IMG/VR virus record: IMGVR_UViG_3300027804_000069
Location: 1,353 to 65,352 of that record
DNA: 64,000 bases
Source of the DNA: a virus
Lineage: Duplodnaviria; Caudoviricetes
Strand: one strand, 5' to 3'
Shown here: positions 18,646-52,100 of the stretch, piece by piece
Layout of the letters: every line of letters starts with the position of its first letter
Numbering within the stretch: the first letter of the stretch is position 1
The notes under the pieces: generated by a model
The model's input: the letters and a program-made list of their open reading frames with translations, nothing else
What the model was told of the DNA's origin: nothing
Databases searched by the model: none
Made by a program: the position numbers and the translations under genes

Positions 18646-19134
18646 TTATTTTATTAAGCTCTTAAAATTATTTTTATACTCAAAAGGTATAGTTGTTTTG
18701 ATAAATCCACTTTCCACCTTTACAAAGCCTTTTGCCTCAAATGTCATGTCCTTAGCTGCTACGGTAAGTGACACTAAATTCACTAAATTACCTAAAACAA
18801 GTCTAGGGTCAAAGCTGAATCTATATGTAGCATCCGTTGTTTTTGCAGGTAAAACTACAATATCTTTTACATCATTCACGTTACCCACTTTAACACCATT
18901 GATTGAGAAATCAAGGTACATTTCCTTAATTGTAGCCTCCACGTTTGACGCATTATAAATGCGGTTTGTAATATCCAAAGAGATATTGTCTAAACCTACC
19001 TTCACCACCTTTAAGCCTACTACTTGATAAGTAATATCTTTAAGGAAGTTGATTTGCTGCTTATAATAGCGAACAAGGGCATAACCGATTACGGCTAACC
19101 CTGTAAATACTAAAAGTGGCTTTAACGATTTCAT
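18646..19134 (-). CDS. LEA_2-like beta-sandwich with N-terminal TM
   Basis: ITNRIYNASNVEATIKEMYLDFSINGVKVG pattern; N-terminal anchor. Confidence 0.6.
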   Translation of the reverse strand: MKSLKPLLVFTGLAVIGYALVRYYKQQINFLKDITYQVVGLKVVKVGLDNISLDITNRIYNASNVEATIKEMYLDFSINGVKVGNVNDVKDIVVLPAKTTDATYRFSFDPRLVLGNLVNLVSLTVAAKDMTFEAKGFVKVESGFIKTTIPFEYKNNFKSLIK

Positions 19135-19733
19135 TTTCTGAATATTAACGCAATTACAACTAGTGCACCTAGTCCAATTCCACCGTAAATTAATAAATTT
19201 TTATTGATTCCACCTGCACTTTTTTCATCCTTTCCCATATCAAGACCAAGTAAATCATTTTTTGCTTTATCTACCGCTGTATCAGATACATTTGTGAGGG
19301 TATCTAAAAGAGCTTTCCTTTCAGCTTCCTTCTTTTGAGTTTCAGCTATGTTTACGCAATCGTACTGATTTCTTAACCTTTTAGCGTTGGCTTCAGCCTC
19401 TACTACAATTTTCATTTGAATAGGTAGTTCAAAGCCTCCACCTTGAGCCATTTGCTTAGTAATTCTTTCTCTCTCTACCATAGCATCTTGGAGTAAACTA
19501 TCTATTCCACCGCAGGTTTTGGTGTTATAACTAGCCCACTTTGCTCTTGCATCTTTCTCTACTTGAGCAACAGACGCTTTACGCTTTTGGCTTCCAAATA
19601 GGTTGTAAAAGTCTTCCTCGCCTGTAAATCCTAAATAACTTTTAGATTTTTCGTCTACAAAGCATCTGTCATTACCTACTCTTGAAGGAGCAAGAGCACC
19701 AAGCTCATTTTGTTCAATCATGTCTATAGCCAT
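19131..19733 (-). CDS. C-terminally anchored membrane protein with FTG-acidic and MAQGG motifs
   Basis: GFTGEEDFYNLFG; KQMAQGG; C-terminal TM. Confidence 0.8.
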   Translation of the reverse strand: MAIDMIEQNELGALAPSRVGNDRCFVDEKSKSYLGFTGEEDFYNLFGSQKRKASVAQVEKDARAKWASYNTKTCGGIDSLLQDAMVERERITKQMAQGGGFELPIQMKIVVEAEANAKRLRNQYDCVNIAETQKKEAERKALLDTLTNVSDTAVDKAKNDLLGLDMGKDEKSAGGINKNLLIYGGIGLGALVVIALIFRK

Positions 19734-20924: not shown

Positions 20925-21728
20925 TTAATTACCCGTTGCGTAAACGTCTTTTATTTTATATTCCTCAATATAGTCCTTAATGAACTTATCAATGATGTCG
21001 TATCTTAATTTGTTCTGCTGACTTGGATAGCCAATAAATGTTTCTCCAAATGCAGAATATGCCTCCTTAATAGGATAACCTAAACCTAAATAAATAGTAA
21101 GCCCATTTAAGTCAGCTTCAGTTTCGTTTGCTATATCACTATTTACATAGTAGTGGCTAAACTCATGTAGTAAAATAGCCATTCTCATAGGAATAGTGAA
21201 AGGCAAAAAGGCTTCTTGAGAAACCTGAATCCTACCATTCTTTGTACTTATTCTAGCAGGTGTAGCCATCTTCTGACCTTTACTGCTTATGATATAAGGC
21301 AAATATTCAATCTTGAAATTACCCGCTGCACTTACATAGTCTTTCTTTGCAGAAAGCCATCCCGCATTGTAGCAGAACTTTTGAGCAAAAGCCACAAAGT
21401 TTCTAACTAATGGGGTGTCCATTTTGGTTTGACCCAAAGTAATATCAAGCTCTTCTCTTTTAACTTCTAGTACCTCAAAAGTAGGGTCTTCACCTTTCTT
21501 TTGATTACCATTCTTTTCATTATAGATACTCAAAACGCAAGTATTAGGAGCTAAAGGCATCCTAACATATAAGTCCTGAGTTCCGTCTATTGTCTTCGTT
21601 CTATTAGTAAAATAAGTATTAGCCTGACCTGCGTCATATACCTTTAATACAATAACTTGAGGACTTGTGGTCTTCACTACAACCTTAACTCGGCATGGAG
21701 AATATCTCGTCCACAACTTATATTGCAT
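20925..21728 (-). CDS. HExxH zinc metallopeptidase-like protein
   Basis: ILLHEFSHYY followed by ETEAD (zincin third-ligand pattern). Confidence 0.75.
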   Translation of the reverse strand: MQYKLWTRYSPCRVKVVVKTTSPQVIVLKVYDAGQANTYFTNRTKTIDGTQDLYVRMPLAPNTCVLSIYNEKNGNQKKGEDPTFEVLEVKREELDITLGQTKMDTPLVRNFVAFAQKFCYNAGWLSAKKDYVSAAGNFKIEYLPYIISSKGQKMATPARISTKNGRIQVSQEAFLPFTIPMRMAILLHEFSHYYVNSDIANETEADLNGLTIYLGLGYPIKEAYSAFGETFIGYPSQQNKLRYDIIDKFIKDYIEEYKIKDVYATGN

Positions 21729-24162: not shown

Positions 24163-24894
24163 TTATTTCTTTTTTGCTTTTACAATCAATACGATAGCAG
24201 TAATAGCAACAAGCACACCTGCACCGATAATGATGTAAGTTGTAACACTTGTCTTTTCACTAGGAGGTAAGTCTGCATTCTTTTTTAATTCATCAGCCTT
24301 TTCTTGTAAAGCTAATGCTTGAGCATTTATATTATTAGCACTAGATTGAGTTCTACTACTAATTTTTTGTAGTCCTATTTGAATACCCGCATTAATTGTG
24401 TCTTCATTACTAAGTGATTTACCAATACTAGCTAATAAACGACCAACTCCCGTCTTTCCTTCAGGATTGTCTGCAGTTACTCTCGCTTTTTTCTTGGCAG
24501 CAGCAGCTTGAGCAGCAGCAGCTTTAGAAGCAGCTGAAGCAGCTTGAGCAGCAGGGTCTTTCTTTTTACCTAGACCAAAAATATTATAAAATTCGTCCTC
24601 GCCTGTGAATTGAAAATCATCAATTCCTGTAAATCCGAAATCTTGAGAAGTACCTACAAAAGATAAAGTTTCACCTGCTTCTTTTACCTTACTTGTAAGG
24701 AAAGTAGATAACTCATTTTTGAAGTTTGGGCTCTTTGCAGAAGCCATTAATACAGCAATAGTTACTTCTTTATCAGAAGCATTGTTACCGATTACAACTC
24801 CATTTCTTTTGAGTAGTCTTTCAAGACCATTCTTATCTGTAACGAGTGCGTAAGCTAATGCTTCCTCTGTTACTTGTAGTGCACTTACTGCCAT
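24163..24894 (-). CDS. C-anchored structural protein with tandem FTG-acidic motifs
   Basis: SFVGTSQDFGFTGIDDFQFTGEDEFYNIFG; C-terminal TM. Confidence 0.8.
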   Translation of the reverse strand: MAVSALQVTEEALAYALVTDKNGLERLLKRNGVVIGNNASDKEVTIAVLMASAKSPNFKNELSTFLTSKVKEAGETLSFVGTSQDFGFTGIDDFQFTGEDEFYNIFGLGKKKDPAAQAASAASKAAAAQAAAAKKKARVTADNPEGKTGVGRLLASIGKSLSNEDTINAGIQIGLQKISSRTQSSANNINAQALALQEKADELKKNADLPPSEKTSVTTYIIIGAGVLVAITAIVLIVKAKKK

Positions 24895-25664: not shown

Positions 25665-25714
25665 GTAAAAAAGGGCGAAGCTGATATAAAATCTGCTTCA
25701 GCCCTTTCTTTTTT
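25665..25714 (-). terminator. rho-independent terminator after the capsid candidate
   Basis: Minus strand AAGGGCTGAAGC...GCTTCGCCCTT followed by a T run. Confidence 0.8.
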
Positions 25715-25731: not shown

Positions 25732-26430
25732 TTAACGAGCAGCAGGTCTGATAATCTTTGGACTACCATATTGCTTAGATACAGGGTTTCCACCTAAACC
25801 ACGAGCAATATTGATGTTATCAGAAGGGTAGAATTGGAACTGAACACTTGAACTTGCGAACATAGTGAAAGTCAATTTAGTGAAGCCATCGATACGGAAA
25901 GGTTGTTTCAATTCGATAACACCACTTTGGTTCTGATAAGGGTCAATTACAGGAGTCAAGATTTTAACAGCTTGGTTACCGTTAGCGTCTTGAGTAGTTA
26001 ATGTAATTGGTTGTAACACTTGACTTGTTGTACCATTTACAGAGCTAATCAAAGTAGAACCGATTGTGAACGGAGATACACTTGATTGGTTAAGTAAGTT
26101 GTAATAAGTTGTGTTAGAAAGGTTTGATGTAATAGTTACGTTGTTTACAGTTAAAGAACCTGCAGAGAAACCTGCATTGTTCAAATAAACATACGCACCG
26201 AATACATCTACAGAAACTGCAGCGTTTGAAGCGTTAGAAACTGTGATGATGTAAGGCTGAGATTTCATCATTCCCGCTGCTGCCATAGGAGCTGCTGCAG
26301 GAGCTGCGTCTGCACCGAAGAAATCGTCAGCACCTGTGAAATAAGTTTCATCTGCGAAACCATCCACACCAATAAACTGCTCGTTCACTGAACGATTAGC
26401 TTGTTGTAAGTACTTTTGAATACTAGACAT
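25732..26430 (-). CDS. putative major capsid protein (jelly-roll-like, 232 aa)
   Basis: Beta-rich, no TM; 13 of 14 Phe codons are TTC; own terminator; next to the packaging ATPase. The fold is inferred, not demonstrated. Confidence 0.65.
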   Translation of the reverse strand: MSSIQKYLQQANRSVNEQFIGVDGFADETYFTGADDFFGADAAPAAAPMAAAGMMKSQPYIITVSNASNAAVSVDVFGAYVYLNNAGFSAGSLTVNNVTITSNLSNTTYYNLLNQSSVSPFTIGSTLISSVNGTTSQVLQPITLTTQDANGNQAVKILTPVIDPYQNQSGVIELKQPFRIDGFTKLTFTMFASSSVQFQFYPSDNINIARGLGGNPVSKQYGSPKIIRPAAR

Positions 26431-26487: not shown

Positions 26488-26595
26488 TTAAGCACCAATC
26501 TTAGCTTTGTCAAGCAACGGCTTAACTGCTAACATATAAAGGGCTACACCCGCTGTTACTACTAAAACTTTACCTGCAAGAGATTTGAAGTCCAT
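26488..26595 (-). CDS. 35-aa membrane micropeptide MDFKSLAGKVLVVTAGVALYMLAVKPLLDKAKIGA
   Basis: Not in the track; first gene of the capsid transcript; single TM. Confidence 0.8.
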   Translation of the reverse strand: MDFKSLAGKVLVVTAGVALYMLAVKPLLDKAKIGA

Positions 26596-26718
26596 TTTTT
26601 TCTAATTTAAGTTTTTAAGAATGATTGTGTATCAACTGAATACAGATTCAAATGACACACCAAACCTAACCACTTAATTTTAATTGATAATTATATTTAA
26701 TTACTTTGTTTACTACTA

Positions 26719-26776
26719 TTGTTTGTAGCAAAAGGCACTTATTTGATTTTTTATACTTGATTTGTTTGTAGCAAAA
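26719..26776. promoter_or_regulatory. 15-bp direct repeat TTGTTTGTAGCAAAA (26719-26733, 26762-26776) upstream of the capsid operon
   Basis: Exact repeat, 43-bp period, containing the TTTG-N3-CAAA dyad. Confidence 0.65.
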
Positions 26777-26810
26777 AAAATCCCCAATAGAATTAACTAT
26801 CAGGGATAAA
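26773..26810 (-). terminator. terminator after the ATPase gene
   Basis: Minus strand ATCCCTGATAG-loop-CTATTGGGGAT then T8. Confidence 0.7.
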
Positions 26811-26830
26811 ATCAAAAACAAAAAAGGGAA

Positions 26831-27652
26831 CTATCCAATATATTGAGCAAGTAGCCTTCTTTTAACTTCGGCTCTTGCGGTTGTGTCTGTGTATTTTTTC
26901 TTATTTTTCTCGTCTTTTAGAACCATGTAAGGATTGGTTAGTGCTCTAAAGTTTTCGCTGATGTATTGGTCTACAGCATCTTCAATCATTTCTTGGCTAT
27001 AGTTACCTCTGATATTTGATTCGTCCATGTCTACATAGCAGTAAAACCGCTTGTTTCCTGAATCGTATTGGTTATTCACCATGATTTCAGCAATACGCAT
27101 ATACTCGAACTTATCAGGGAATTTGTTTTTGTGTCTTTCAACTGATTCCACGTTTTTATGGAATCTTAATTGATTCAAATTTCCCCAAAGTTTAGTAACA
27201 ATTCTACCAATAGACTGATAAGACAGAATAATATCTAAACCAACGTGACGATTTGTTGCAATAGCACCCACCAAATCTGATGGCATATGGTCTCCAATAA
27301 ATTTAGAAGGGTCTTCAATTACCAAAAGACCATTTTTGAAAGTGCTTAAAACGTAAAATAGAGCCTGAGCCCATTCGTCCAAAGTCATTCTAGTTCCATT
27401 TGGATGAAAAGGTCTTATACGTCTTACTTCTACATGGGGGTGAACTGTAAATAAGCCTACGTCATTTAGTGACAAAGCTCTAATACCAAAGACACCATAC
27501 TCGTCATTTACGTCCATGACAAGTGCCTTACGACCTTTTATACCATGATAAGGGTCTCCTTCAACATATTTGTTTATGGTAATCATGTGAGCCCATGTCT
27601 TCCCCACACCTTTTTTACCAACTGCAGCCATTAATAAAGGTTCTCTTCCCAT
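26831..27652 (-). CDS. FtsK/HerA-superfamily genome packaging ATPase (A32/P9-like)
   Basis: Walker A GKKGVGKT, Walker B LLVIED, Arg-finger/sensor TNRHVGLDIILSYQ; no TM. Confidence 0.85.
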   Translation of the reverse strand: MGREPLLMAAVGKKGVGKTWAHMITINKYVEGDPYHGIKGRKALVMDVNDEYGVFGIRALSLNDVGLFTVHPHVEVRRIRPFHPNGTRMTLDEWAQALFYVLSTFKNGLLVIEDPSKFIGDHMPSDLVGAIATNRHVGLDIILSYQSIGRIVTKLWGNLNQLRFHKNVESVERHKNKFPDKFEYMRIAEIMVNNQYDSGNKRFYCYVDMDESNIRGNYSQEMIEDAVDQYISENFRALTNPYMVLKDEKNKKKYTDTTARAEVKRRLLAQYIG

Positions 27653-38075: not shown

Positions 38076-38657
38076 TTATTTTTTCTTATAATACAAATAT
38101 ATTCCAAGTCCTAATAGCAAAGCACCTAAACCCAATCCTTTCTTGTTTTTTCCCACAAATTCCACTATTTGAGCACGAAGCATGAGTAATTTGATACCAC
38201 CTGCATATTGAGAAATTTCTTTTTCAGCTTGAGGTGTTCCATAAGCACCGAATCCGTAATAACTTCTCTTTTTAAGAAGTCTTGCAAACTCTTCAGGTGT
38301 TTTGGCATTTTTCAGTTGTTCAGGTGTTACACCACCCATAGTCTTACTATAAAGCCTTACTATCTTATCAGTTGCACTATCCTGAACTGAAGCAAACTTT
38401 GCGTAGTGGTCGCTGTTTTTACATTCACCGCCACTTCTACAAGACGCACTTCTCTCATTTGCAGGAGCTAGAGAACCTCTAGTTGCTAATGGCTGACCTA
38501 TGAATTTCATACCACTAGTATTGTTATTAGCTCTGAATACGGCTGAAGTGTAGTTAGCACTCTCAAAACGGGCTTGACCTACTATCAGTTTTGCTGCAGT
38601 AGGTGTAAAGCCTTGTTTTATTGCCGTATCATATATGATTTGGTCGTAGTTTGCCAT
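38076..38657 (-). CDS. glucosaminidase-like muramidase with C-terminal TM
   Basis: QARFES...NNNTSGMK...YAKFASVQD; C-terminal LGLGALLLGLGIYLYY. Confidence 0.75.
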   Translation of the reverse strand: MANYDQIIYDTAIKQGFTPTAAKLIVGQARFESANYTSAVFRANNNTSGMKFIGQPLATRGSLAPANERSASCRSGGECKNSDHYAKFASVQDSATDKIVRLYSKTMGGVTPEQLKNAKTPEEFARLLKKRSYYGFGAYGTPQAEKEISQYAGGIKLLMLRAQIVEFVGKNKKGLGLGALLLGLGIYLYYKKK

Positions 38658-41600
38658 TATTTTTTCTTTTTAGCCATTTTCTCTTTTAGCTGTGCCATTC
38701 TAGAACCAACGATTCTTTGAGCTGATTCTTTAGCTTCCTTTTTATCGTAGGTCTTACCATAGTCCTTTTGAACTTGAGGAGCTACCTTCTTACGCTTTAG
38801 TAAAGACTCTTGAACGGCTTTTACCTTGTCAGAGAATTTGGTTTTGCCACCCATAGCCATTTCTCTTTTAGGCATAGTCTTTTTTAACCAACTTAAAACG
38901 TCAGATTCATCTAAATATTCGTTTTGTAAAGTTCCGATACTTGATTGAGAGGTTGATTCATACCTTTTGTACACACCTTTTTCTGATTTGTTAGGTATAA
39001 TGGTATCGAACACTTTTTTTCCATTTCCTCTTACATCAAGATACCTTTTAAGTTTGCCTTCCTCTTTTAACTTGTTTAAGAGTTTTAATGCTCTTTCATC
39101 TTCAGTTTCACCACCATCAGCCATTTTTGATTCAGCTTCTTTTACACTAAAAGACAAATCACCACCGAATTTAGATTTGTACTTCTCTTCGTAGTCTTCA
39201 CCCATTTCTCTAGCCTCTCTTGCATTTTTAGCTCTAAATCTTTCTTCACCTACTTCTTTACCATCTTTAGATACTTTCAAAATGTAAAGGCTATCACTTG
39301 AGTAAATGCCACCTTTAGCCATTTTTTCCTCAATTAAAGTAACCTCTCTGATTTGTGTATCAGGCATTCTCTTTAAAGCATTCATTACGTCATTTTTATC
39401 TGACATTCTACCTAAGGTGATTTCCTTCTCAAACTTTTTACCTTGAATGGTGATACCTACAACTTTCCATTTTTTTGTGTAGTTTGTTTCACCTCCTTTA
39501 GCCATCATGCCACCATCTTCAAACTTAAAGTTTTTGATAGTTGGTCTATTTAGATATTTTAAAGATTCCAAAAAGTATTTGTCTCCTAAAAATTCAAACC
39601 TATCTAATACACCCTTGTAAGAATAATCTTTCAAGAAATAAGTACCATCATTCTTTACAATCTTACCTGTATAAGCTATTTCTTTAATGAAGTTTTCAGG
39701 GTACTTATGTTCTGATGTTTGGTTTTCGTGAGCCTTTTTAATTAATTCAGCAAACTTCTTACCGCTTTCTATTTGCTGACCGAAGTTATTACCTGCTAAT
39801 TTGTATCGTACTTCACCGCCTTTAGCCATGTAGCCACCTTTCTCAAATTCAATACCTTGCTTACCCATTTCAGCTCTTGCCTTGGTAATTAGCTTTAAGT
39901 GTAGCTCTTGTCTCTTTTTGCCATTTTCACTTGATAAACTACCTTCTTTTTCGTGTAAAGCCAATATTTCTTTTGCTTTAGCTAAATCTTCTTTTGTACC
40001 GAAATGCTTTGCAAGTAGAACTACGTTTTCGCTATGTGCGTTTTCGTCTTCGTTCTTTAGGTATTCCTCTTTGATTGAGCTTAACTCACCACCTTTAGCC
40101 ATGTAGCCACCTTTCTCCATTTCAACTCTGTCATGCAGAGGAATTGGATATTTTGAAGGGAATCTGCTATCAGAAGAGTAAATAAATGTTCCACCAAACA
40201 TACCTCTACCTTCAGGTTGGTCATAAGGTATTGCATGGATATAGTCACCCCAAGGTAATTTTCTCCTAACTAATTTTACAGCAGGAGTAGATTCATCAGC
40301 ATCAAATATTTTAGGTACTTCTTTATCAACTATTATAACCCCTTTTTTACCATATAACTTATTTGTAGGGCTATCATATTGACTTCTATATATGTCTGCT
40401 GAAAGCCCTTCTAATACTCCACCATCAGCCATGTAGCCACCTTTTTCCATTTTCAAACCATCTAGGTAGTGTGTAATATCACTCAAATCAGTTTCAGCTC
40501 TTTCTGATTTTGAAAGAACCCACGCTTCGATTTCAGTATCAGGTTTAACAGCACCCGCTAACTCTTCAGCATGGTGCTTGATAGCTTTGATATTGCTCAT
40601 AAGCATTTCGTAATTGCCTTCTGCAACACTACCACCTTCAGCAAAGAATCCGAATAGTTTTGTTTCTTTTGGTTTACCACCTTCAAACTCTTCTAAATCT
40701 TTATAAACTGACTTTTGACCATCACTAAATAAGAATCTTCCTTTGTTTGCTCCTGAATCTACTTTACCGATAAACTTGAACTCTTCGCCACTTTTATCTT
40801 TGTACCAACGTCCTGCAGTCATGCCACCTAAAGCATATAAACCGCCTTTTTCAGCTTTTGCAAGTCTTAAAGCAATTTCCATTAAGTGTTGTGGAACAAA
40901 GCTGTATAAGTTAATTGCCATACCTGCTCTGAAGTTGTAAGTAGATGCACTCATAATATCACTTACAGCATGGCTGAAGTTAAGCTCACCGCCAATTCCA
41001 CCTTCTACTACCACTTTTTCGATACCGAATAGATTGTCTACATATTTAGCACAATAAGCTAAAGACTCTTTTTCAAGTTCTTTGCTATCTTTCATTATGT
41101 CTACCGCAGCTTCAAACTCTTTTACTGCAGTACCGCAAATGTCAAAGTTCTTTGTTTCGTAGCCAAATACTTCAATATTCTTTCCTGAACCGAAGTGTGC
41201 AGGTACTTGACCGCCTTTAGCCATCATTTCGCCTTTATGTGATTTAAGCCATGATTTAACTTCATCATAGAAAGGTCTTGACCTAAACTCTGCTATATGA
41301 AAAGCGTTACCCTTATAATCTTTTGAATTACTTAAATAAAAATGAGTTGAATCAATGTATGTTAAGTAGTAAGTATCGTCACCATCAGTAACTCTTTTAA
41401 CTTCACCACCATCAGCCATTTTAATTGGCTCTTCTGATAATTTTTGAGATATTTCTCTGTGTTTATCCCTTAATTCATAATCACCTATGCTATTGGCTCT
41501 GAATGCTTCACTTTCATGCTCTGATTTAGTCATTGAGTATTCATCATCAACTTCAAGCCATCTGTTACTTCCTACAAACTCTTCTTTGTAGTTTTTCCCG

Positions 41601-43561
41601 TTTTGTGACTTTAATTCACCGCCATCAGCCATGTAGCCACCATCAGCCATCATACTTGCACCTGAATTGTCAGAGGAAATTCCCATGTTACCAACGCTAG
41701 AACCTGCCGTACCTGAAATATGGTCTTTGAGTCTTTGTAAATCAGTTTCGCTAATTTTGAAAGGAACTTTTTTATCCATAGTAAAATGATGACGATAAGC
41801 ACCATTTGCATGGCTTTGGCTCATTAGCCCTCTACCTGAACTCAAATCTAAAAATCCAAATCTTGTATCAGATTGAATTGTAATAGGCTGCCCCGCTTGG
41901 TCAGCAGAAATTGGATAAACGCTAAAATCTTGCGGGTTTCTCATTCCCTTAATCTTCATCATGAATGAAGTAGTACCCATAATATTCCTTCTAATAGTAT
42001 ATATTTCGGCATTTACTACATCCATACTACCACCATCAGCCATGTAGCCACCTTTAGCGTAATCATAATCTAACCATTTATCATAAATTACATCATAGCT
42101 TACACCCTCTATTTTAGACAATTTATCGAACACTCTTTCTCTCACTAAACTATCGGCAACACCAAGATATTCATATACATCACCTTTGTCATTTAAAACC
42201 ATGCTTAAACCATTAAATGTGGCATCAGCGTTTATATCTTCACCCAAATCATCGGTTGGGAACGCACCAACATAGTAATCTTTTATTTTTTTGAGGGCAT
42301 CGGTATTTCCCCCTTTTGCGTAATTCATATCTTTATTTTTTAATTCGTTTAGTTCTTTTTCAGCGTCTTCTCTTTTGTCATGAAATTCACCATCGTAGTC
42401 GTTGTCTTCGTCTTTTGAAATGACTTTATATAAAGGCTTGTCATTGTAATTGTCACGACCTTCAAATATCACATAACCACCATGAGCATATTCAGGAGCA
42501 TCTAATCTTTCAACACCTTTTTTGCTAACTACAACACTTCTTTCGTTTCCGTTGTCCATGAGTGTTACTAAAAGGTCTCTACCTACTGAACCTGAAACAA
42601 AGCCTGTTTTACCTTGAAATAGACTTTTTGAATCAGTAATGTAAACGTCATTACCTACTGAAAAACCACCACCTAAATCAGCTCCCCAATCAATTTCACC
42701 ACCATCAGCCATTTTAGGAAAATACCTGAATTGATTTTCAAATTTTTCTGCTTTAGCTACTCCATGAGTTTTAACATTACCATCTTCGTCAATTATATTA
42801 TATTCGTAAGTTCTGTCTCCGTTGTGATATTTAACCACTCTTACTTCATCACCTTGAAACATACCTTCATCACCTTTCTCATATTTGTATTTACCATTTG
42901 GTAATTTACCACCATCAGCATAATCAGGATAAGCGTTCATTTTCAAATCTTTTAATTGCTGTACTAACAAAGTATTCATTTTGTCATGGGTTGATTTGTC
43001 TACTTTTCCATCATTAAACATGATATCGTTTGCTAAAATCTTTTCTATTGTGCTTTCAGTTGGTAAATAATATTCTTTCCCTTTTTCAATAGTAAGTCTA
43101 TAATGAGCCCATCTGTCTAATACTTGATAATATTCTAAAAACTTAGGATTGTTCAAAGTACCACCTTTAGCCAAATAAGGCTTTTTTGAAGTTTGCTTAT
43201 CAGAACGATTTGCTCTTGTTTCGTAATAAATCTTACCACTTTTAGAAATACGCTTTCCTGCAGGTAATGACTTCCTATCACCATCTCTAGCAATATTGTC
43301 CTTTTTTCTTTCCTCTTTTGCAGGAGCTTTGGCAGGTGTTTTTTTAGCCACAGACGTTTTAGCAGCTTTGATTTTTTCAGCTACTTTAGATACTTTTTTA
43401 GTTTTAACAGCTTTTTTTTCAGCAGTTTCTAACTCCTGTAGTTCCTTTTCAAGTTTGGCTTTTTGTGCCTTTAATGGAGCTATCAAATTAGAAGGGGTAG
43501 CCTTACTTTTTATGCCGTTTTCTAATTTATCTATTTTAGCTTTAAGTTCCTGCTTTGTCAT
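38657..43561 (-). CDS. giant modular polyvalent protein, about 25 [MYFL][AE]xGG linkers
   Basis: 1634 aa; linkers counted by eye in the translation. Confidence 0.85.
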   Translation of the reverse strand: MTKQELKAKIDKLENGIKSKATPSNLIAPLKAQKAKLEKELQELETAEKKAVKTKKVSKVAEKIKAAKTSVAKKTPAKAPAKEERKKDNIARDGDRKSLPAGKRISKSGKIYYETRANRSDKQTSKKPYLAKGGTLNNPKFLEYYQVLDRWAHYRLTIEKGKEYYLPTESTIEKILANDIMFNDGKVDKSTHDKMNTLLVQQLKDLKMNAYPDYADGGKLPNGKYKYEKGDEGMFQGDEVRVVKYHNGDRTYEYNIIDEDGNVKTHGVAKAEKFENQFRYFPKMADGGEIDWGADLGGGFSVGNDVYITDSKSLFQGKTGFVSGSVGRDLLVTLMDNGNERSVVVSKKGVERLDAPEYAHGGYVIFEGRDNYNDKPLYKVISKDEDNDYDGEFHDKREDAEKELNELKNKDMNYAKGGNTDALKKIKDYYVGAFPTDDLGEDINADATFNGLSMVLNDKGDVYEYLGVADSLVRERVFDKLSKIEGVSYDVIYDKWLDYDYAKGGYMADGGSMDVVNAEIYTIRRNIMGTTSFMMKIKGMRNPQDFSVYPISADQAGQPITIQSDTRFGFLDLSSGRGLMSQSHANGAYRHHFTMDKKVPFKISETDLQRLKDHISGTAGSSVGNMGISSDNSGASMMADGGYMADGGELKSQNGKNYKEEFVGSNRWLEVDDEYSMTKSEHESEAFRANSIGDYELRDKHREISQKLSEEPIKMADGGEVKRVTDGDDTYYLTYIDSTHFYLSNSKDYKGNAFHIAEFRSRPFYDEVKSWLKSHKGEMMAKGGQVPAHFGSGKNIEVFGYETKNFDICGTAVKEFEAAVDIMKDSKELEKESLAYCAKYVDNLFGIEKVVVEGGIGGELNFSHAVSDIMSASTYNFRAGMAINLYSFVPQHLMEIALRLAKAEKGGLYALGGMTAGRWYKDKSGEEFKFIGKVDSGANKGRFLFSDGQKSVYKDLEEFEGGKPKETKLFGFFAEGGSVAEGNYEMLMSNIKAIKHHAEELAGAVKPDTEIEAWVLSKSERAETDLSDITHYLDGLKMEKGGYMADGGVLEGLSADIYRSQYDSPTNKLYGKKGVIIVDKEVPKIFDADESTPAVKLVRRKLPWGDYIHAIPYDQPEGRGMFGGTFIYSSDSRFPSKYPIPLHDRVEMEKGGYMAKGGELSSIKEEYLKNEDENAHSENVVLLAKHFGTKEDLAKAKEILALHEKEGSLSSENGKKRQELHLKLITKARAEMGKQGIEFEKGGYMAKGGEVRYKLAGNNFGQQIESGKKFAELIKKAHENQTSEHKYPENFIKEIAYTGKIVKNDGTYFLKDYSYKGVLDRFEFLGDKYFLESLKYLNRPTIKNFKFEDGGMMAKGGETNYTKKWKVVGITIQGKKFEKEITLGRMSDKNDVMNALKRMPDTQIREVTLIEEKMAKGGIYSSDSLYILKVSKDGKEVGEERFRAKNAREAREMGEDYEEKYKSKFGGDLSFSVKEAESKMADGGETEDERALKLLNKLKEEGKLKRYLDVRGNGKKVFDTIIPNKSEKGVYKRYESTSQSSIGTLQNEYLDESDVLSWLKKTMPKREMAMGGKTKFSDKVKAVQESLLKRKKVAPQVQKDYGKTYDKKEAKESAQRIVGSRMAQLKEKMAKKKK

Positions 43562-43598
43562 TGTGGGTAAAATTTGTATGTAAATTTAGTAATATTTC

Positions 43599-46103
43599 TT
43601 ATACCAATAACTTTAATGCCTCTAAAGTATCTTCAGCGTCCTTATCTCCCGTTTCAGCTAAGATTTCTAAAGCAGCTATTGTTTCTAGTATTTCCTCTCT
43701 AGTAGCCTCAGCTTCAGGTTCGGGTTCTATGTCTTCAGGCTCAGGTACAACTATGGGGGGTGCAGGTTCTTCAACAATCGGAAGTACTGCCTTTTGCTCC
43801 TCTAGTTTGGTTTCCATTTCGTCTACAGAAGGCTCTACGACCTGAGCTACCAATTCGTCATTTTTAACGAAATCCACAACCTTTTCCCCACCTTTCTTTT
43901 TGTCCACAACCATACCTAGACCTGTTTCCCCGCTATTTCCTTTGTAGTCTATGTATTGGTCTTCTCTAATATCAGAAGGTGGAACGAAGTTTCCTATATC
44001 ATATTTTCTCTTAGCTACTTCAACTATTTTCTCCATGAAAGTGCCAATGTATTCTAGCTCCTTTCCTGCAGGATAAGGTCTTTGGTAGCCTTCGGCAATA
44101 ATGTCTTCCATAGGAATATCAGCAACTAGATAGTTACTTACCCTATCTGCATCAAATAACTTTTTTAGAATCCATGTTTCCCATGCTCTAGCAAAAAGCT
44201 CTACCGCACTAGTCCAATATTTAGTTCTACGAACACCGCCAATTATATATTTTTTGTATGTAGATTTTGGGTCTAAATACACATATTGAAAGTAAGAATA
44301 TGCTGTTTTATGGTATAAGTAGCTAGTTTTTAGCCTCATGGGTACGTCATAGCTTTCAAGTCCGAACTGCTTAATAATATAACCAAATATCTTTACTTGT
44401 CTAGGAAGTTTAGCTTCATCTACTTCAGCAAAATCATAAAAGTCAATCTCATTTATAGTTTGCTCTATAGTTTCTTTAATTTCTACTACCTTAGATACAT
44501 ACCTCCTATTTTCAGCGTCATAATAGGAATAATCAGGTACTTCTGTACTTTCTACAGCCATGAATTTCATAGGGACTCTTGGTGTATATAAGTTATTACC
44601 CTTGTAAATAAAGCTGAATAGTTCTTTAAAGAGAGTCTTCAATTCAGAATCAGGGCTGTAACCTTCAGAGGCAAACTGATTGGTTGCTCTTTGTTGGTCT
44701 AGCTCTACTATTACGTTGTCGAAGTAGTGACCCCACTCGTGAGCTACAGACCCGTCACCATTACTTTTAGTAAGGTTAATATCTTTTGTTTGAGGGAAAT
44801 AGGCAGCAGCGTGTCCTTTACGTCCTTTTGCCCCGAAAGCTATCTTTAACTTACCTAGCTGATTGGCTTTTTTAATATCAATATTTATCATTTCAGCCAT
44901 GTCGCTGATGGCAGCTAAAAAGTGTTTTGTATGCTCCTTACTCCATTTATCGTCTACATATTGACCATAATTCACAGCAGCAAAGCCAAACTTATTAACA
45001 ACTTCTGCAGGTGTGATTTCAGGTATCTTGTAGCCTCCTGTTCTTTTAATGTAAGAAAGGGGAGCTTTTGTATTGATAGCCTGTTCTTTAGGAGCAGCAG
45101 TGTCTTTCTTTGTTTCGTCTTTTGTTTCAGTCTTTTCAAACCAATCCCAATTATTAGGTCTAGGTGCTGCACTAAGTTGCTTTGTTGCAAGACTCATTCT
45201 TGACCTTCTCAATTCATCTTCTGAGTATTGTATTAGAAAATCTCTGAATTTCTCTATGTCAGCCTTATAAATTGATTGGTTGTAAGAATTAATTCTCCAA
45301 GAAGTCTCCATAGTTAGTAAAAGCTGCTTTCTGTCCATTTCTTTATACCTAGCTACTTTTTTCTGAAATGACTCCACAGCATTCATTTCCCTTTCTTTAA
45401 GAGCATCAATAATCTCTTTTGATTTTTCTTCGCTTATAGGCTCTTTGTCTAGTGCCTCAGACCAAATAATTGCAGCAGCGTCACTAGTTCTAAATAGTAT
45501 ATTTTCAAACCTAGAACTCATAAGCTCATTTATAATCTTTTTTACAAGACTTGAACTTTGATACAGGAAAGCCATTCTTAAATTCTTGTTTTGCTTCAAA
45601 GCATCTTCTATAGCTTTTTTAGTGTCTTCGTCTGCAGTAGCGTAATCAGGGTTGAAAAAGGTTGCAATAACTTCATTCATAGGCATACTTCTGTAGTATT
45701 CAACCATATTCCTGATTTCTTCTACATTGAAACAAGCATCTAGCTTATTTTGAAGGCTCTCTAAAAAAAGTACATAGCTCTTACGCATTCCCTTTTCGTC
45801 TTTCGGTCTTGTAGGAACAGCCTCTCTTATCTTAACTTTCAGAAACGCTGCACCTGAAGTAACACCATTTTCCTTTTGAGCTTTTACGTCAATAGGTGAC
45901 CAAACGTTGTCCTTTTTAACCATGTTGTATGCCATTACAGCGTCATCTTCTAGGTCAGTTAGGACTTTTGAATTTATTAATCTAAAGGCTGCTTTTTCCT
46001 TTTTAGTCTGTGCTACACGACCAATATCTTTGAACTCTCTATTAGATTGTTTTTCCTGTAGCCTTTGCTCTACCTGTTCCTTTATTTGATTTAAGTCAGC
46101 CAT
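43599..46103 (-). CDS. large polyvalent protein with MPTase-like HExxH and LPD1-like domains
   Basis: VAHEWGHYFD; YWTSAVELFARAWE...YP-x-G-x-E. Confidence 0.75.
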   Translation of the reverse strand: MADLNQIKEQVEQRLQEKQSNREFKDIGRVAQTKKEKAAFRLINSKVLTDLEDDAVMAYNMVKKDNVWSPIDVKAQKENGVTSGAAFLKVKIREAVPTRPKDEKGMRKSYVLFLESLQNKLDACFNVEEIRNMVEYYRSMPMNEVIATFFNPDYATADEDTKKAIEDALKQNKNLRMAFLYQSSSLVKKIINELMSSRFENILFRTSDAAAIIWSEALDKEPISEEKSKEIIDALKEREMNAVESFQKKVARYKEMDRKQLLLTMETSWRINSYNQSIYKADIEKFRDFLIQYSEDELRRSRMSLATKQLSAAPRPNNWDWFEKTETKDETKKDTAAPKEQAINTKAPLSYIKRTGGYKIPEITPAEVVNKFGFAAVNYGQYVDDKWSKEHTKHFLAAISDMAEMINIDIKKANQLGKLKIAFGAKGRKGHAAAYFPQTKDINLTKSNGDGSVAHEWGHYFDNVIVELDQQRATNQFASEGYSPDSELKTLFKELFSFIYKGNNLYTPRVPMKFMAVESTEVPDYSYYDAENRRYVSKVVEIKETIEQTINEIDFYDFAEVDEAKLPRQVKIFGYIIKQFGLESYDVPMRLKTSYLYHKTAYSYFQYVYLDPKSTYKKYIIGGVRRTKYWTSAVELFARAWETWILKKLFDADRVSNYLVADIPMEDIIAEGYQRPYPAGKELEYIGTFMEKIVEVAKRKYDIGNFVPPSDIREDQYIDYKGNSGETGLGMVVDKKKGGEKVVDFVKNDELVAQVVEPSVDEMETKLEEQKAVLPIVEEPAPPIVVPEPEDIEPEPEAEATREEILETIAALEILAETGDKDAEDTLEALKLLV

Positions 46104-46105
46104 GA

Positions 46106-49100
46106 TTATTTGAAATTAGATTTACCAAATTGTGATTGCATAATTTTAGCGTCTTCGTCTTCGTCCCCATCAATAAAACCGCCAACTGCAAAGCTCTTTT
46201 GAGGTAATTTGTTCTTTACAAGTGCTATAGCGGGTTCTAGTTCTCTTTCTGTGCTAATATTTTTAATTGAAATTGATTTGTCTTTGAAGTATTTGATTAA
46301 TTCATCAAAAGTAAGGTGTTTATCCTCCATTTTAGACTGAAGCGGACTTTTAGGCTTGTTTACAAGGTTTACTCCGTCATCTGAAAACGAGACCACTTCC
46401 CATTGGTCATTACCACCACTTGAATAAACTATTGTACCTACAGCTAACATAGGCATACCATCTGATAGTCCTAAATCGTCTGCAGTAATGTAGTGCTCGT
46501 TTACCATCATTTCCTCCATTACAGGCTCTACTTCAACTTCAACCTCTACTTCTATTTTAGGGAATAAATGGCTTTTAAGTTCTGTTTGGTAATCAGTTTC
46601 CCCGCCTTCAGCTAAATAGCCTTTGTCTACTTTTTGGTAGAACTTTATTACATCTTCGTCTTTTGACAAATCGTAATTATTTTTTATAGCCTTAGCCTTA
46701 TAATTATCATTTAATGTCATTACATTGATATAACCTTCCTCTGAAGGTATATATTCATAAATTTTAATTAATTCTCTTCCATCGTAACTTTTGGCTCTTT
46801 GAATCTTAAATTTTTCTGTCTCCCCACCATCAGCCATGTAACCCCCTTTTTCCAAAACATTAACCTTGCTAAATCTTCCCAATCTTTTCGTAAACATTTT
46901 ATAGAATACTTTACCAATGTGGAAATAATCATTAGGCTCTGTTGAATCGATAATTTTTACTTGATACACTATTTCACTAGGTCTTACTCCCTGTCTAGCA
47001 CCACTCAATACTTCATATATAAAAGTACCTTGATAACCTTCTGATATTTTTATTTTATCTCCTATTTCTAATTTATTGGCATCTTTTAACATACCACCTT
47101 CTGCCATTTCTCCACCTTTACCAAATTTTGCGACTTTCTTTAATTTAATTGAATATTGTGCTTGTCCTGTATTTTGGTTGTATTCCATATTTACTGAATC
47201 AGCATCGAAAAATTCAGCACTTGAAGTAGCCTCTTTATGTAATTTTTCAGCCATGCCTGTCGTATAATTCTCATCAAGTCCAATAATTAAAGAGTTTGAA
47301 CCTTCGTCAATATAATAAAACTTTATAGGCATTACCTTCTTTATAAATATTTCTATTTTTTGAGCTAAAAGTTTATCTGTTAATGAGTGTAAATCACCTG
47401 TAATTCCACCTTCAGCCATAGAATGTTTACAACCGCATGAGCTAACTATTTCATGGTCTTTCATCATTTTGCCACCATATTTGTACTCTTTGCCACTTGT
47501 ATAAATACTTTCAGGAATATCCCCACCATCAGCGAAAGATACACCACCACCGCTTTCATTGATTTTTGAAAGGATTTCCCTGTTCGTCATCATTTTACCT
47601 TCAAATTCACGCTTAGTATCGTCAGAAACGGCATTACGGGTAATAACCACCTCACCCCCCTCCATTTCTAAAGGTTGGTTAGTTGATTTGTTTACGGCTT
47701 TGATACCGCCTTCGCTATGTCTTTTACCAACTAAAACACCGCCAACGTTACCGCTGCCATGTGAGAAGTAGTCTTTTACGTTTTTATCGTCAGGGTTTAT
47801 TTCACCACCTGCTTTATAGTAACCACCTTTTTCCATTTTGTTGTTTTTATGTTTTCTGACCATAAAGCCATTTGGCAATAATTCAAAGCCAAACTTCTCA
47901 TAGTAAGATATTAGGTATTCTCTAGTTATTTTTTCCTTTTTAGAGCTATCCTTTATATGATTGTGTCTAGGTATCGGCTCTAAATAAACATCTATTTCGT
48001 TCTTATTTGCTAATTCTAAAAGCTCCTTTAGTTTTTCTTTACCATCTACACTTTCGTCCCTTTTCTCAAAAACGTCCAAAATCACATGATTATCCTCACT
48101 TGACATTTTACTGAACTCGTTTGGTACTGATACCATAATGGTCATCTTATCCGATACACCATTTTTGTACCAATCTTGGTATTCTTTGTAAAACTCTGTA
48201 ACACCCCCCTGAGCCATTTTATTTTGGCTTTCCATGTAGTCTAATCTTTCAATTATTTCGTTTGCCTGTCTTATGGGCTTTATTGATTTGTAAATCAGAG
48301 CTTTGTTAAATAGTGAATTATCTAGTAAATCCCCCTTAGCCATTTTATTTTGGCTTTCCATGTATTCTAGTTTCTCATAGTAGTCAATCATTTCGTCTAA
48401 ATGCTGTAGAGCAATAGTTTCCTGAACGATTGGGTTATCTGAATGTTCTGATTCTGTTTTCATTCCCTTTCTGAGCTGCTCTTCGGCATAATCTAAAGGA
48501 ACGTCCTTTTCTTTGGCTATTTGCTCAATAGTCTTTGAAGGCTTGAATAATTCAAGACCTAACTCCATTTTGATTAAATCGTGCTGAGATGGAATGGCTA
48601 AAGTACCACCATTAGCGTAATTATCTTTTATAAAAACAGCCTCTTGGTTATCAAATTCCTCTTTTAGAATGTCTTTTTTTGACCTTGACTCAGATATTGT
48701 ACCATACTTTTTATCTAATTGATTGAAATAGATATAATTACCATCGTCTTTTCTATCCTTGTATGTGATTGTATCGTTCTTATTTACAATCGTATTTATG
48801 TATTTACCATTGTCTTGAACAAACTCGAATTTTAGACCTTCTTTGAAAAAAGAGCTATCCTTTTTCCATAAAACAACTGAAAAATCATCAGCTATTTCCA
48901 ATTCTTCACCAACCTTATTGCCAACTTTTATAGTACCATTAAAATATATTTTGTTTAAATTGGGATTGTTTTTTATTATATCTATGACTTTTCTTTGACT
49001 AGGATTTCTTGAATCAATAAATTCAACATCTCTTTCGGACTCTTTTTCGTAAGAATATCCATCATTTCTTGCCACCACTACCTTATAACCTAATTTATAC

Positions 49101-52100
49101 CACTCTCTTATTTTCTTTTCTCTTTCCTTCCTTACTGATTCAATTAAATTTTCAGTTGGACTTACAATTAAACCCCCATTTTCATATTTAGGGTATTTTT
49201 TTAACACCTCACCACTATATGTTAATCTGTCCTCGTAATAGTCTGTATCACCATACACATTGTTATGTATTACTTTACTAGGGTCAAGTTCTCCTATTAC
49301 CTTTAACCCACTCGTTTCTAATAACCTTTCACCATCTGCACCTCTACTATAATTACCATAAGATACATGACCTTTTATAGGGTTTCCTTCAATTAAATAA
49401 ATTGGCAATTTATCCCCTTGCCTTACCCAATAACTTTCTTCTAGGTCATTACCAAAATCTTGAAAACCTTTTGCGTCTTCAAAGTCAATAAAAACAAATT
49501 TACTATTTGGGCTATACCTTGCAGTAAAAACAGATACACCCTTCTCTTTAGTGTTTGTTATATAGTTATATGACACTAAATAATTATCTAATCGTTTTCT
49601 TGGTAACCCAATCCTAACATATATTTCAGGTAAATCTTCAAATTTTTGTTTGCCTTTATTAGTTTTTGTGTATTTTTTTTCTAAATAATCATTACCTGCA
49701 TAAATTACTTCACCACCATTTTCATACATTTTCGGGTTGCTTAGGTAGTATATCGCAACTTCTTTGGCTGCTTTTAGTGTTTTGTAGCCACCAATAGTCT
49801 TTTGTGGCTTACCATCATGCTGCATATTTAATATCCACAATTTGTCAAGTTTGCTATAATGTATACTTGCATCTTTGTATTTGTATTCTGTATCTTCAAA
49901 AGATTCATCTATACCCAAATATTCTTTTTTTATTCTCTTAAAATCATCTGATGCACCACCATCTTCCATAAATCCTATTGGCTCAGGGTCATAAAATGTT
50001 CTGTTGTCAAACCCGCATTTGTGACAAATGTATTTATCAGATTCGTCAGAATCAGAGGTATTCCAATGCCACCCACAATTAACGCAAGTGATTTCTTGAC
50101 CTACAGAACCGCCATCAGCCATACTATCTGAGCTGAAGTTTTGCATGATTTCGTAGTAGCCCTTAATCTTTGTACCATCTGCAAGGGTTGCATTTTCTAA
50201 ATGAGTTATATATCTATAGTGAAAAGAAACTATGTTATACCCCGCTGCAGGTATGGCTTCAGTAACAAAATCAAAATAACTGCCATCTGCAAAATTAAAT
50301 CTGTAACGTCCCTCAAATCCTTTTTTACCAACTTTTAGACTTTCTCTACTTACATCAGATATTGGCTTACTAACTCTAGGGAAGTTATCTAGCACAGCCT
50401 TCAAAAATCTGTATTTCAAAGACTCAGCATAGTCTAAAATGATTTTATCCATTATAGGCTTATAATCAGATTTTAGCTCTAAGTCTTTATAGAAATTTTC
50501 AATTATTGGATAACCTCTATAGTCCTTAGTTTTAACTACTATTGGCTGACTTTCAATAAAAATGTCTCTCCAAAATACTATTGCTGTTTGTAACTTCTCT
50601 ACGTTTACCCCACCTTCTTTTTGACTTAGCTCAATATATTCTTTTATCAAACCTTCAAATCTCTCAGTTTCTCTTTCAATTACAATCTTTTCAACGTCCT
50701 TAAAGTCTTCAAAAAGCTGCTTATATAGTGATTTGAATACATCTTGATTCATTTTTGGTATCTTGGAAAGTATTTCATCCATTTGCTTTTTAGCCTCTTT
50801 TTTGAGTAGACTTTCCTGACTAAATACCTTTTTTGGAACTTTTACACCTTGCTCTTCTGCTATCTTGATTACTTCGTCTTCTGTGATTTCACCATTTTCA
50901 ATCATTTTTTTGTAGGTGTCATCTTCGATAGCTCTTCTAATTTCAGACTTATTTGACTTTTTGTAATCTGAGTTAAGTCCATCAAATATTACTTTTTCAT
51001 CAAAAAACTTATTCAAATCTTTGAAAAAAGCTATATTTTTTTCTAGTATATCTTTAGGTGTTGGTGCGGGAATAGTATAGTCATCGTATTTACGAAACTT
51101 TCTTTCATTCCAATTCTCTATTAATTGCTTTTCATCATTACTTCGGAAATAATATCCTGTTTTCTTACCATCTAAACCTCTACTAAGTACCTGCTCAAAT
51201 GTAACTTTGTAAAATCCACTATACGATGTTAATGACAAATATTTATCATTTTTTCTAGCGAATTTCTCATATTCTTTTAGAAGTGGAACAACCCTGTCTT
51301 CATACTCTGATTTAGTCATTAAGTATGCAGGTTTAGGGGTATCGTCACTCTTAGCAGCCTCTAGCTTTTGTGCGTCTATAATCTTTTGTTTTTCCCTCTT
51401 TATCTTATTTTCAAGGTCTCTTGCCTTTTTTCTTTCCTTTTCAGCAGCAGCTCCTCTATTGTATTTTTCATAATCTTCTTTAGCTCTCTCTCGTCCGAAA
51501 TCGGAGTCATCATAAACTACATAACCATAATATTCTTTGGGCATTTTGTTGTACCTAAGTCTATATCCCAAAAGTCCTTCTTTTGTCAAATCTTCAGATT
51601 CTTCCCTACCTAAATCATTTGTGGATTTATAAACACCAACAATCGTATAAGCCTCTTTGCTTTTCTTGGTTTCGCCACCATCGGCTAGTTTTGAATCAGA
51701 TAACATTTTTTCGTATTGTTTTTTTGAAACTAAATTATATCCCCACCTTTTAGCCATATCCTTTACTACACTTAACCTTTTATCACCATCAACATTATAG
51801 TAATTATTGTCACCATCTTTAGTAATTAACCAATAAAAACCACCTTCCCATTTTTCAATAAAGGCAAACTTTTTTACGTCACCCCCATCAGCCATAAGGT
51901 CATCGTCCTGAACGTATGCAGCTTTAACTTGCTGACCTGCTTTCTTTTTAAGGAATTTATTTACTCTAGCAAAGCCCCATGCTTGTCTGCTATTTGGTGC
52001 TCCACCTGTAATTGTAGGTCTGTGAGAAGTAGAATAAGCACCCATACCCCTACGCATAACTGCTTTTAGGGTTGCAACGCTTACCTTATTTTTTGGGTGA

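Follow-up and report, generated by a model that had tools for sequence, protein, structure and literature searches.

Phages that lack a tail but contain a membrane are presumably widespread in aquatic habitats, yet they are badly under-sampled, and the genomes of their cultured representatives comprise approximately 10–44 kb. In the Helvetiavirae, the ATPase gene lies beside the capsid genes, and STIV, which infects an archaeal host, combines a double-jelly-roll capsid protein with a genome of about 17 kb. Helvetiavirae such as Sphaerolipoviridae, Simuloviridae and P23-77 are tailless, possess an internal membrane, build their shell from single jelly rolls and encode a packaging ATPase of the FtsK/HerA type (PMC12643093, PMC12642351, PMC8328091). 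In this study, the gene P0001 was analyzed, an open reading frame (ORF) with ATG start located at positions 25,732–26,430 on the minus strand of a 64,000-base stretch of viral DNA (hereafter the window) and encoding a protein of 232 aa. The window represents bases 1353–65,352 of a 65,352-base IMG/VR virus record with a CheckV completeness of 68%. An original prediction made from the sequence had proposed P0001 as the major capsid protein. Based on codon bias, predicted fold and genomic context, P0001 is regarded here as the probable major capsid protein of undescribed large freshwater phages of the membrane type and as representing a new family of single jelly rolls.

Like in the Helvetiavirae, P0001, which is of single-jelly-roll size, adjoins the ATPase gene. 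However, Helvetiavirae combine genomes of 16–31 kb with two full-size major capsid proteins, whereas one full-length family member and a genome of at least 84 kb were found here. The pair of two different single-jelly-roll major capsid proteins that characterizes this group (PMC12643093, PMC12642351) is thus missing, and no sequence match between its members and P0001 was obtained. STIV and STIV2 (Turriviridae) are similar in that their B204 protein is the best structural match of the ATPase and P0001 weakly matches STIV jelly-roll chains, among others; yet the ATPase shares just 13–18% sequence identity with B204 and features about 70 extra C-terminal residues. The likeness to viruses of the PRD1/PM2 type (Tectiliviricetes) concerns the packaging ATPase class, the many small membrane proteins and the putative vertex spikes, and small jelly-roll chains of PR772, PRD1 and PM2 were among the best, albeit weak, fold matches of P0001. 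In contrast to the double jelly roll of these viruses, P0001 contains one barrel, and the genome is 6–8 times larger than theirs. Hence, the two barrels in one chain that mark the Bamfordvirae are replaced in P0001 by a single barrel of approximately 165 residues.

Another membrane-containing tailless phage, SSIP-1, was reported to show PRD1-type architecture with two capsid protein types (PMC6356626). The record of its 43,788-bp genome lists a structural ATPase, the giant structural protein gp43 (6960-nt gene) and several structural proteins of 210–256 aa. Alignment of both family profiles (P0001 and ATPase) by means of hhalign with 20 SSIP-1 proteins, including all annotated structural proteins but gp43, revealed no relation, and the two ATPases match in the Walker A motif only. 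A search of the literature for the lineage studied here returned no description. The virus is an approximately 85-kb freshwater bacterial virus of an undescribed lineage with a genome of at least 84 kb; its relative G001 (84,229 bases, CheckV completeness 90%) extends beyond the record by 14 kb at the left and 4 kb at the right end.

Codon usage, conservation and predicted fold of P0001

The bias toward TTC, AAC, ATC and CGT codons claimed for P0001 was reproduced exactly, including the ratio of 13 TTC among 14 phenylalanine codons (one TTT). Over the 88 ORFs of the window, which also served for counting membrane segments, the TTC share is 29%. Likewise, asparagine is encoded by 15 AAC and four AAT codons (AAC share of all ORFs: 35%), isoleucine by eight ATC, eight ATT and no ATA among 16 codons (ATA share: 41%), and four of the five arginine codons are CGT (CGT share: 11%). 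An index of C-ending pyrimidine codons computed for all ORFs amounts to 0.64 for P0001, the first rank among the 88 (mean 0.31, standard deviation 0.10). Since the bias is retained by 13 orthologues originating from other metagenomes, it represents a selected property and not noise.

Comparison with the relative G002 showed 82% identity for P0001, the highest value of all full-length ORFs, followed by a protein carrying an HEFSH motif (78%); the ATPase reached 70%. The P0001 family comprises 559 close homologues, and 546 clusters were obtained at 50% identity; nearly all members are 220–260 aa in length, and none is annotated. Contigs encoding family members reach approximately 107 kb and those with homologues of the adjacent ATPase approximately 119 kb, and they originate from lakes and other fresh waters. 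P0001 itself matched neither Pfam nor PHROGs, and searching PHROGs with all 115 diverse homologues of the family alignment yielded just two isolated matches, both to families lacking a function. A profile search of the PDB sequences with this alignment retrieved nothing, ESM Atlas returned only unnamed clusters (0.82–0.85) and no structural model, and tblastn and megablast searches of 50,697 phage records produced zero matches for P0001, the ATPase and the 12-kb region. P0001 can be considered the hallmark protein of a large and so far uncharted set of viruses, with no relative found in Pfam, PHROGs, PDB or cultured phages. Among species genomes, the single match was a 16.9-kb contig (L031, CAUYTX010000366.1) of an assembly labelled Gammaproteobacteria bacterium, which carries the whole module of ATPase, micropeptide and capsid gene at 82% identity. 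This copy could stem from an infected cell or from faulty binning, or provide a hint to the host, but it is too little for naming one; a Bacteroidota host would be another possibility.

The AlphaFold model of P0001, computed from the 115-homologue alignment, has a mean pLDDT of 83.7 and consists of a helix (residues 3–19), a low-confidence arm (approximately 17–55) and one beta-sandwich (56–220). Both structural features of the original prediction were recovered: the N-terminal arm is acidic and Ala-rich (pI 4.1; 12 Ala in 56 residues), and the beta part, predicted at about 170 aa, is of single- and not double-jelly-roll size (approximately 165 residues, pI 9.3). Arm length differs among family members, the arm being composed of [N/S/G]-A-[D/N]-G and acidic/aromatic motifs in repeated form, and a near-invariant (T/K)SQPYI marks the start of the barrel. 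Among close relatives, 64% of the positions in the arm are variable versus 23% in the barrel. On the strength of the predicted model, the fold class is regarded as settled, namely a single jelly roll. All fold matches of P0001 were weak and no close structural relative of the family emerged; capsid chains of SH1, HCIV-1 and P23-77 were not among the matches listed (best 50 of each of two VIA searches; Foldseek), which does not establish that these folds differ.

Genomic neighborhood and transcript signals

Upstream of P0001, a gene at 26,831–27,652 (minus strand) encodes a 273-aa ATPase of the FtsK/HerA type with Walker A and B motifs. Of 36 homologues, 22 match the Pfam family DUF87 (HerA) and 15 match Zot. 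Its structural model (pLDDT 89.8) matched B204 of STIV2/STIV best, with E-values of 7e-9 to 1e-7 and TM-scores of 0.63–0.70 on the target, followed by HerA (1.8e-6) and the Zot N-domain (1e-5); the E-value for B204 is approximately 250-fold better than that of the next family. Searching the PDB sequences with the ATPase family profile gave only Walker A matches to ClpB. The enzyme is thereby placed in the FtsK/HerA superfamily (A32/B204/P9-like), to which the packaging ATPases of the Varidnaviria morphogenetic module belong (the other hallmark of that module being a major capsid protein whose jelly-roll barrels are perpendicular to the shell), and these structural matches suggest a function in genome packaging. 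By analogy, P0001 and the ATPase may work together like the core of ATPase and jelly-roll capsid protein known for Varidnaviria (PMC8328091).

Between both genes, a single-pass membrane micropeptide of 35 aa is encoded at 26,488–26,595 (minus strand), which is conserved in all relatives examined. Furthermore, eight small ORFs are located downstream of P0001 (22,352–25,649, minus strand), most of them with one hydrophobic segment, and these are candidates for virion membrane proteins; in total, 28 of the 88 ORFs encode small proteins with a hydrophobic segment. The order of ATPase, micropeptide, jelly-roll gene and a 143-aa membrane protein is retained at 13 close loci, and the first three genes also occur together in two distant members showing 29% and 38% identity. 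The motif FTGADDFF of the P0001 arm recurs as FTGIDDF and FTGEDEFY in the product of 24,163–24,894 and as FTGEEDFY in that of 19,131–19,733, i.e., four hits of the FTG-acidic-aromatic motif in three proteins versus 0.19 expected from shuffles. Both of the latter ORFs (minus strand) encode tail-anchored membrane proteins, and the motif common to them and the P0001 arm points to a docking partner or a processing signal used by all three.

The strong terminator predicted downstream of P0001 was found directly past its stop codon, where an intrinsic-terminator-like hairpin (GGGCUGAAGCAGAU...AUCAGCUUCGCCC) followed by six U residues extends over 25,667–25,710 on the minus strand. Its free energy (dG) is -22.4 kcal/mol (z -4.2), and none of 200 shuffled sequences was equally good; a simple terminator scan missed this hairpin because of bulges in its stem. 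A second terminator-like site with a T-run (26,780–26,807) is located at the end of the ATPase gene, upstream of P0001, so that terminator-like hairpins flank P0001 on both sides. The latter site is part of a non-coding, putatively regulatory region of approximately 235 bases (26,596–26,830, minus strand), which also harbors a conserved block composed of TAGGTTTG (26,661–26,668) and TGAATCTGTATTCA (26,637–26,650). This block is common to eight relatives, its surroundings being variable. The region contains in addition a 14-nt direct repeat (26,719–26,732 and 26,762–26,775), which occurs twice only and is compatible with chance. Within the block, TGAATCTGTATTCA forms an imperfect palindrome on the minus strand, invariant in the eight relatives; it is located downstream of the putative promoter box but ahead of the start of the micropeptide, and may represent an operator or a hairpin of the 5' untranslated region. 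Boxes of the form TAnnTTTG, a Bacteroidota-type consensus, are not enriched in the window (85 found versus 94 expected), and therefore it is the conservation of the box alone that counts. A sigma-70 promoter scan performed no better than on shuffles. The claim that P0001 is preceded by its own regulatory region thus holds with regard to the conserved non-coding block, but the 35-aa ORF intervenes, so that the region probably drives a two-gene message with the micropeptide as first and P0001 as second cistron of the same transcript.

RNA libraries were screened for contigs covering the locus. For perfect-match contigs over P0001, word depths of 133 (X7) and 79 (X8) were recorded in two metatranscriptome runs, versus 4–17 for perfect-match neighbours. 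Run X20, belonging to a third study, contained a near-match contig over P0001 (35 differences in 675 nt) with a depth of 217. Altogether, RNA-library contigs over P0001 were approximately 5–30 times deeper than their neighbours, and a run probably representing DNA showed a flat depth of about 8. The deep RNA contigs extend from within the P0001 gene over the micropeptide ORF to 26,580–26,620. The excess in depth is suggestive only; P0001 is apparently the most heavily expressed gene of the virus.

Role of P0001 and competing explanations

Results obtained for fold, codon bias, ATPase neighborhood and conservation support the assignment of P0001 as major capsid protein, and the original prediction is considered partly supported. 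A second family member of this genome, a paralogue, comprises only half a barrel and is unbiased in codon use. The family profile detected P0001 and this paralogue only in the genome. The latter encodes 165 aa (whole gene G000:C1:1036-1533); its N-terminal part is located at positions 1–181 of the window (minus strand), and the gene continues past the left edge. It aligns with residues 104–203 of P0001 only, about half of the barrel (hhalign probability 97.7%), uses TTC for two of 12 phenylalanine and ATC for none of 11 isoleucine codons, and lies approximately 26 kb from P0001. The paralogue is conserved in five relatives and adjoins a Thr-rich, spike-like protein, and a minor vertex-associated protein fits it better than a second major capsid protein.

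Further points weigh against P0001 as the shell protein. Its location in the virion is deduced indirectly, as are its oligomeric state, the function of its arm and a high protein abundance. The records are incomplete (CheckV 68–90%), and a capsid gene could lie in DNA outside the sequenced part. Moreover, RNA depth was derived from assembled contigs, which are unfit for ranking genes, and a conserved gene also gathers contigs of relatives. Finally, no virus is known in which a single jelly roll of one kind, in vertical orientation, suffices for building a large shell.

Several other roles were considered. P0001 might be an abundant surface add-on, i.e., a turret, a protein decorating the capsid or collagen-like fibres, or a trimeric head of the TNF/C1q type. 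Heads of this type are compact homotrimers of ten-stranded jelly rolls and are usually carried by a collagen or coiled-coil stem. An add-on role appears unlikely, since P0001 contains neither a collagen repeat nor a fibre stem and TM-scores were only 0.2–0.3; moreover, no other gene equals P0001 in expression signals or conservation, its linkage to the packaging ATPase persists even between deeply diverged members, and no other shell candidate was found. Slightly less credible still is a function as vertex (penton) protein, with the true major capsid gene either unrecognised or located outside the sequenced portion. A protein present in 60 copies would not be expected to rank first in codon bias and RNA signal, and a better vertex candidate is the half-length paralogue, which shows low bias and neighbours the Thr-rich protein. 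In addition, none of the scanned window ORFs of at least 250 aa resembles a double jelly roll.

The latter result is based on a PHROGs scan of all 17 window ORFs of at least 250 aa, 12 of which were also compared with Pfam; in the additional 14-kb left end of G001, the larger ORFs were scanned with PHROGs and partly with Pfam. Neither in these window ORFs nor in the left end of G001 was a family match to terminase, portal or HK97 capsid proteins detected, although very divergent forms could escape such a scan and such genes could lie in DNA outside the sequenced part. The HK97-fold capsid, portal and large terminase that characterize Caudoviricetes were consequently not found among the scanned ORFs. 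The additional 4-kb right end of G001 contains no ORF longer than 285 aa. Window ORFs of more than 400 aa comprise only glycosyltransferases, three giant modular proteins and a collagen-like fibre of 1526 aa. Of the other unnamed larger ORFs, one resembles a sulfotransferase and others appear glycosyltransferase-like; a 377-aa protein, which seems to be disordered for the most part, and the 267-aa HEFSH protein also belong to this set. No double-jelly-roll candidate was seen among window ORFs of at least 250 aa. A 335-aa ORF of a relative was considered as capsid candidate and rejected, as ESM Atlas points to glycosyltransferase-like families.

The least plausible of the explanations is an abundant non-structural or core protein, e.g., a nucleoplasmin-like acidic chaperone for basic DNA-condensing proteins during assembly. 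An acidic tract is present in P0001, but it is short and N-terminal, and the barrel itself is basic (pI 9.3). Fold matches to such proteins are no better than those to capsid proteins, and paralogue expansion and a tandem two-barrel form fit lattice proteins better. Three full-length paralogues surround the ATPase gene on a 12.5-kb contig (L034: 455–1168, 2701–3390, 6001–6687) and two on another contig (L033: 2746–3624, 6001–6723). Furthermore, a 107-kb metagenome contig encodes P0140 (L030:10001-11194), a rare family form of 397 aa consisting of two tandem barrels, the halves of which are 31% identical (E 3e-31). Longer (fused) homologues of more than 407 aa were searched for and none was found. 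Multiplication and fusion of barrels are known for lattice-forming jelly rolls (PMC8328091, PMC8812541), and since this is a known habit of such proteins, it lends modest support to a shell role of P0001. None of these alternatives explains equally well why the strongest expression signals, the highest conservation and the linkage to the ATPase coincide in one gene and why no other candidate emerged; in view of the weak fold matches, however, each retains a low probability.

Taking P0001 as major capsid protein, the following scenario is proposed. A strong late promoter dedicated to this unit and located ahead of the micropeptide, together with a terminator on each side, would generate a short and very abundant late transcript, and optimised codons would raise the yield of P0001 further. 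Its 176-residue jelly roll would then form capsomers over a lipid vesicle studded with small membrane proteins, with the N-terminal helix and acidic arm pointing inward to the membrane or its proteins via the FTG-acidic motif. A cleavage of the arm, as originally suggested, is possible. The B204-like ATPase would pump the DNA into the preformed particle. A more far-reaching variant, considered doubtful, postulates a large membrane-lined icosahedral shell for genomes of approximately 85–120 kb, built from one vertical single-jelly-roll protein in homo-hexameric capsomers, i.e., the postulated ancestral state of the PRD1-adenovirus lineage. If such a one-protein shell were true, relatives with two to three diverged paralogues and the tandem fusion would capture the next steps, and the transition from single to double jelly rolls could be studied within one living family.

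If P0001 is the shell protein, it would serve as a marker for finding these viruses, and the known genome size for bacterial viruses of this particle type would roughly double. Moreover, the occurrence of single barrels, multiple paralogues and a two-barrel fusion within one family would bear on the origin of double-jelly-roll capsids.

Further features of the genome and its relatives

The Thr-rich neighbour of the half-length paralogue (G000:C1:1-1032, L002), located left of the window, exceeds 344 aa in length; its globular N-domain precedes long TTSTTT/PPTTS repeats, and it looks like a heavily O-glycosylated spike. The same genome also encodes many glycosyltransferases and one sulfotransferase. 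In P0140, a basic, hydrophobic N-terminus replaces the acidic arm, and its gene is located between those of a glycosyltransferase and a giant DUF5661 protein.

The second most conserved ORF (78%), at 20,925–21,728 (minus strand), encodes the 267-aa protein with a beta-rich N-terminal half and the HEFSH motif, which is of the HExxH type known for zinc proteases. A role as lytic enzyme or as protease in virion maturation is conceivable. The giant modular proteins (1634, 834 and 2053 aa) are encoded at 38,657–52,267 (minus strand) and contain LPD1 and DUF5661, domains typical of 'polyvalent' proteins. SSIP-1 likewise encodes a virion protein of giant size, gp43, beside its ATPase and structural genes.
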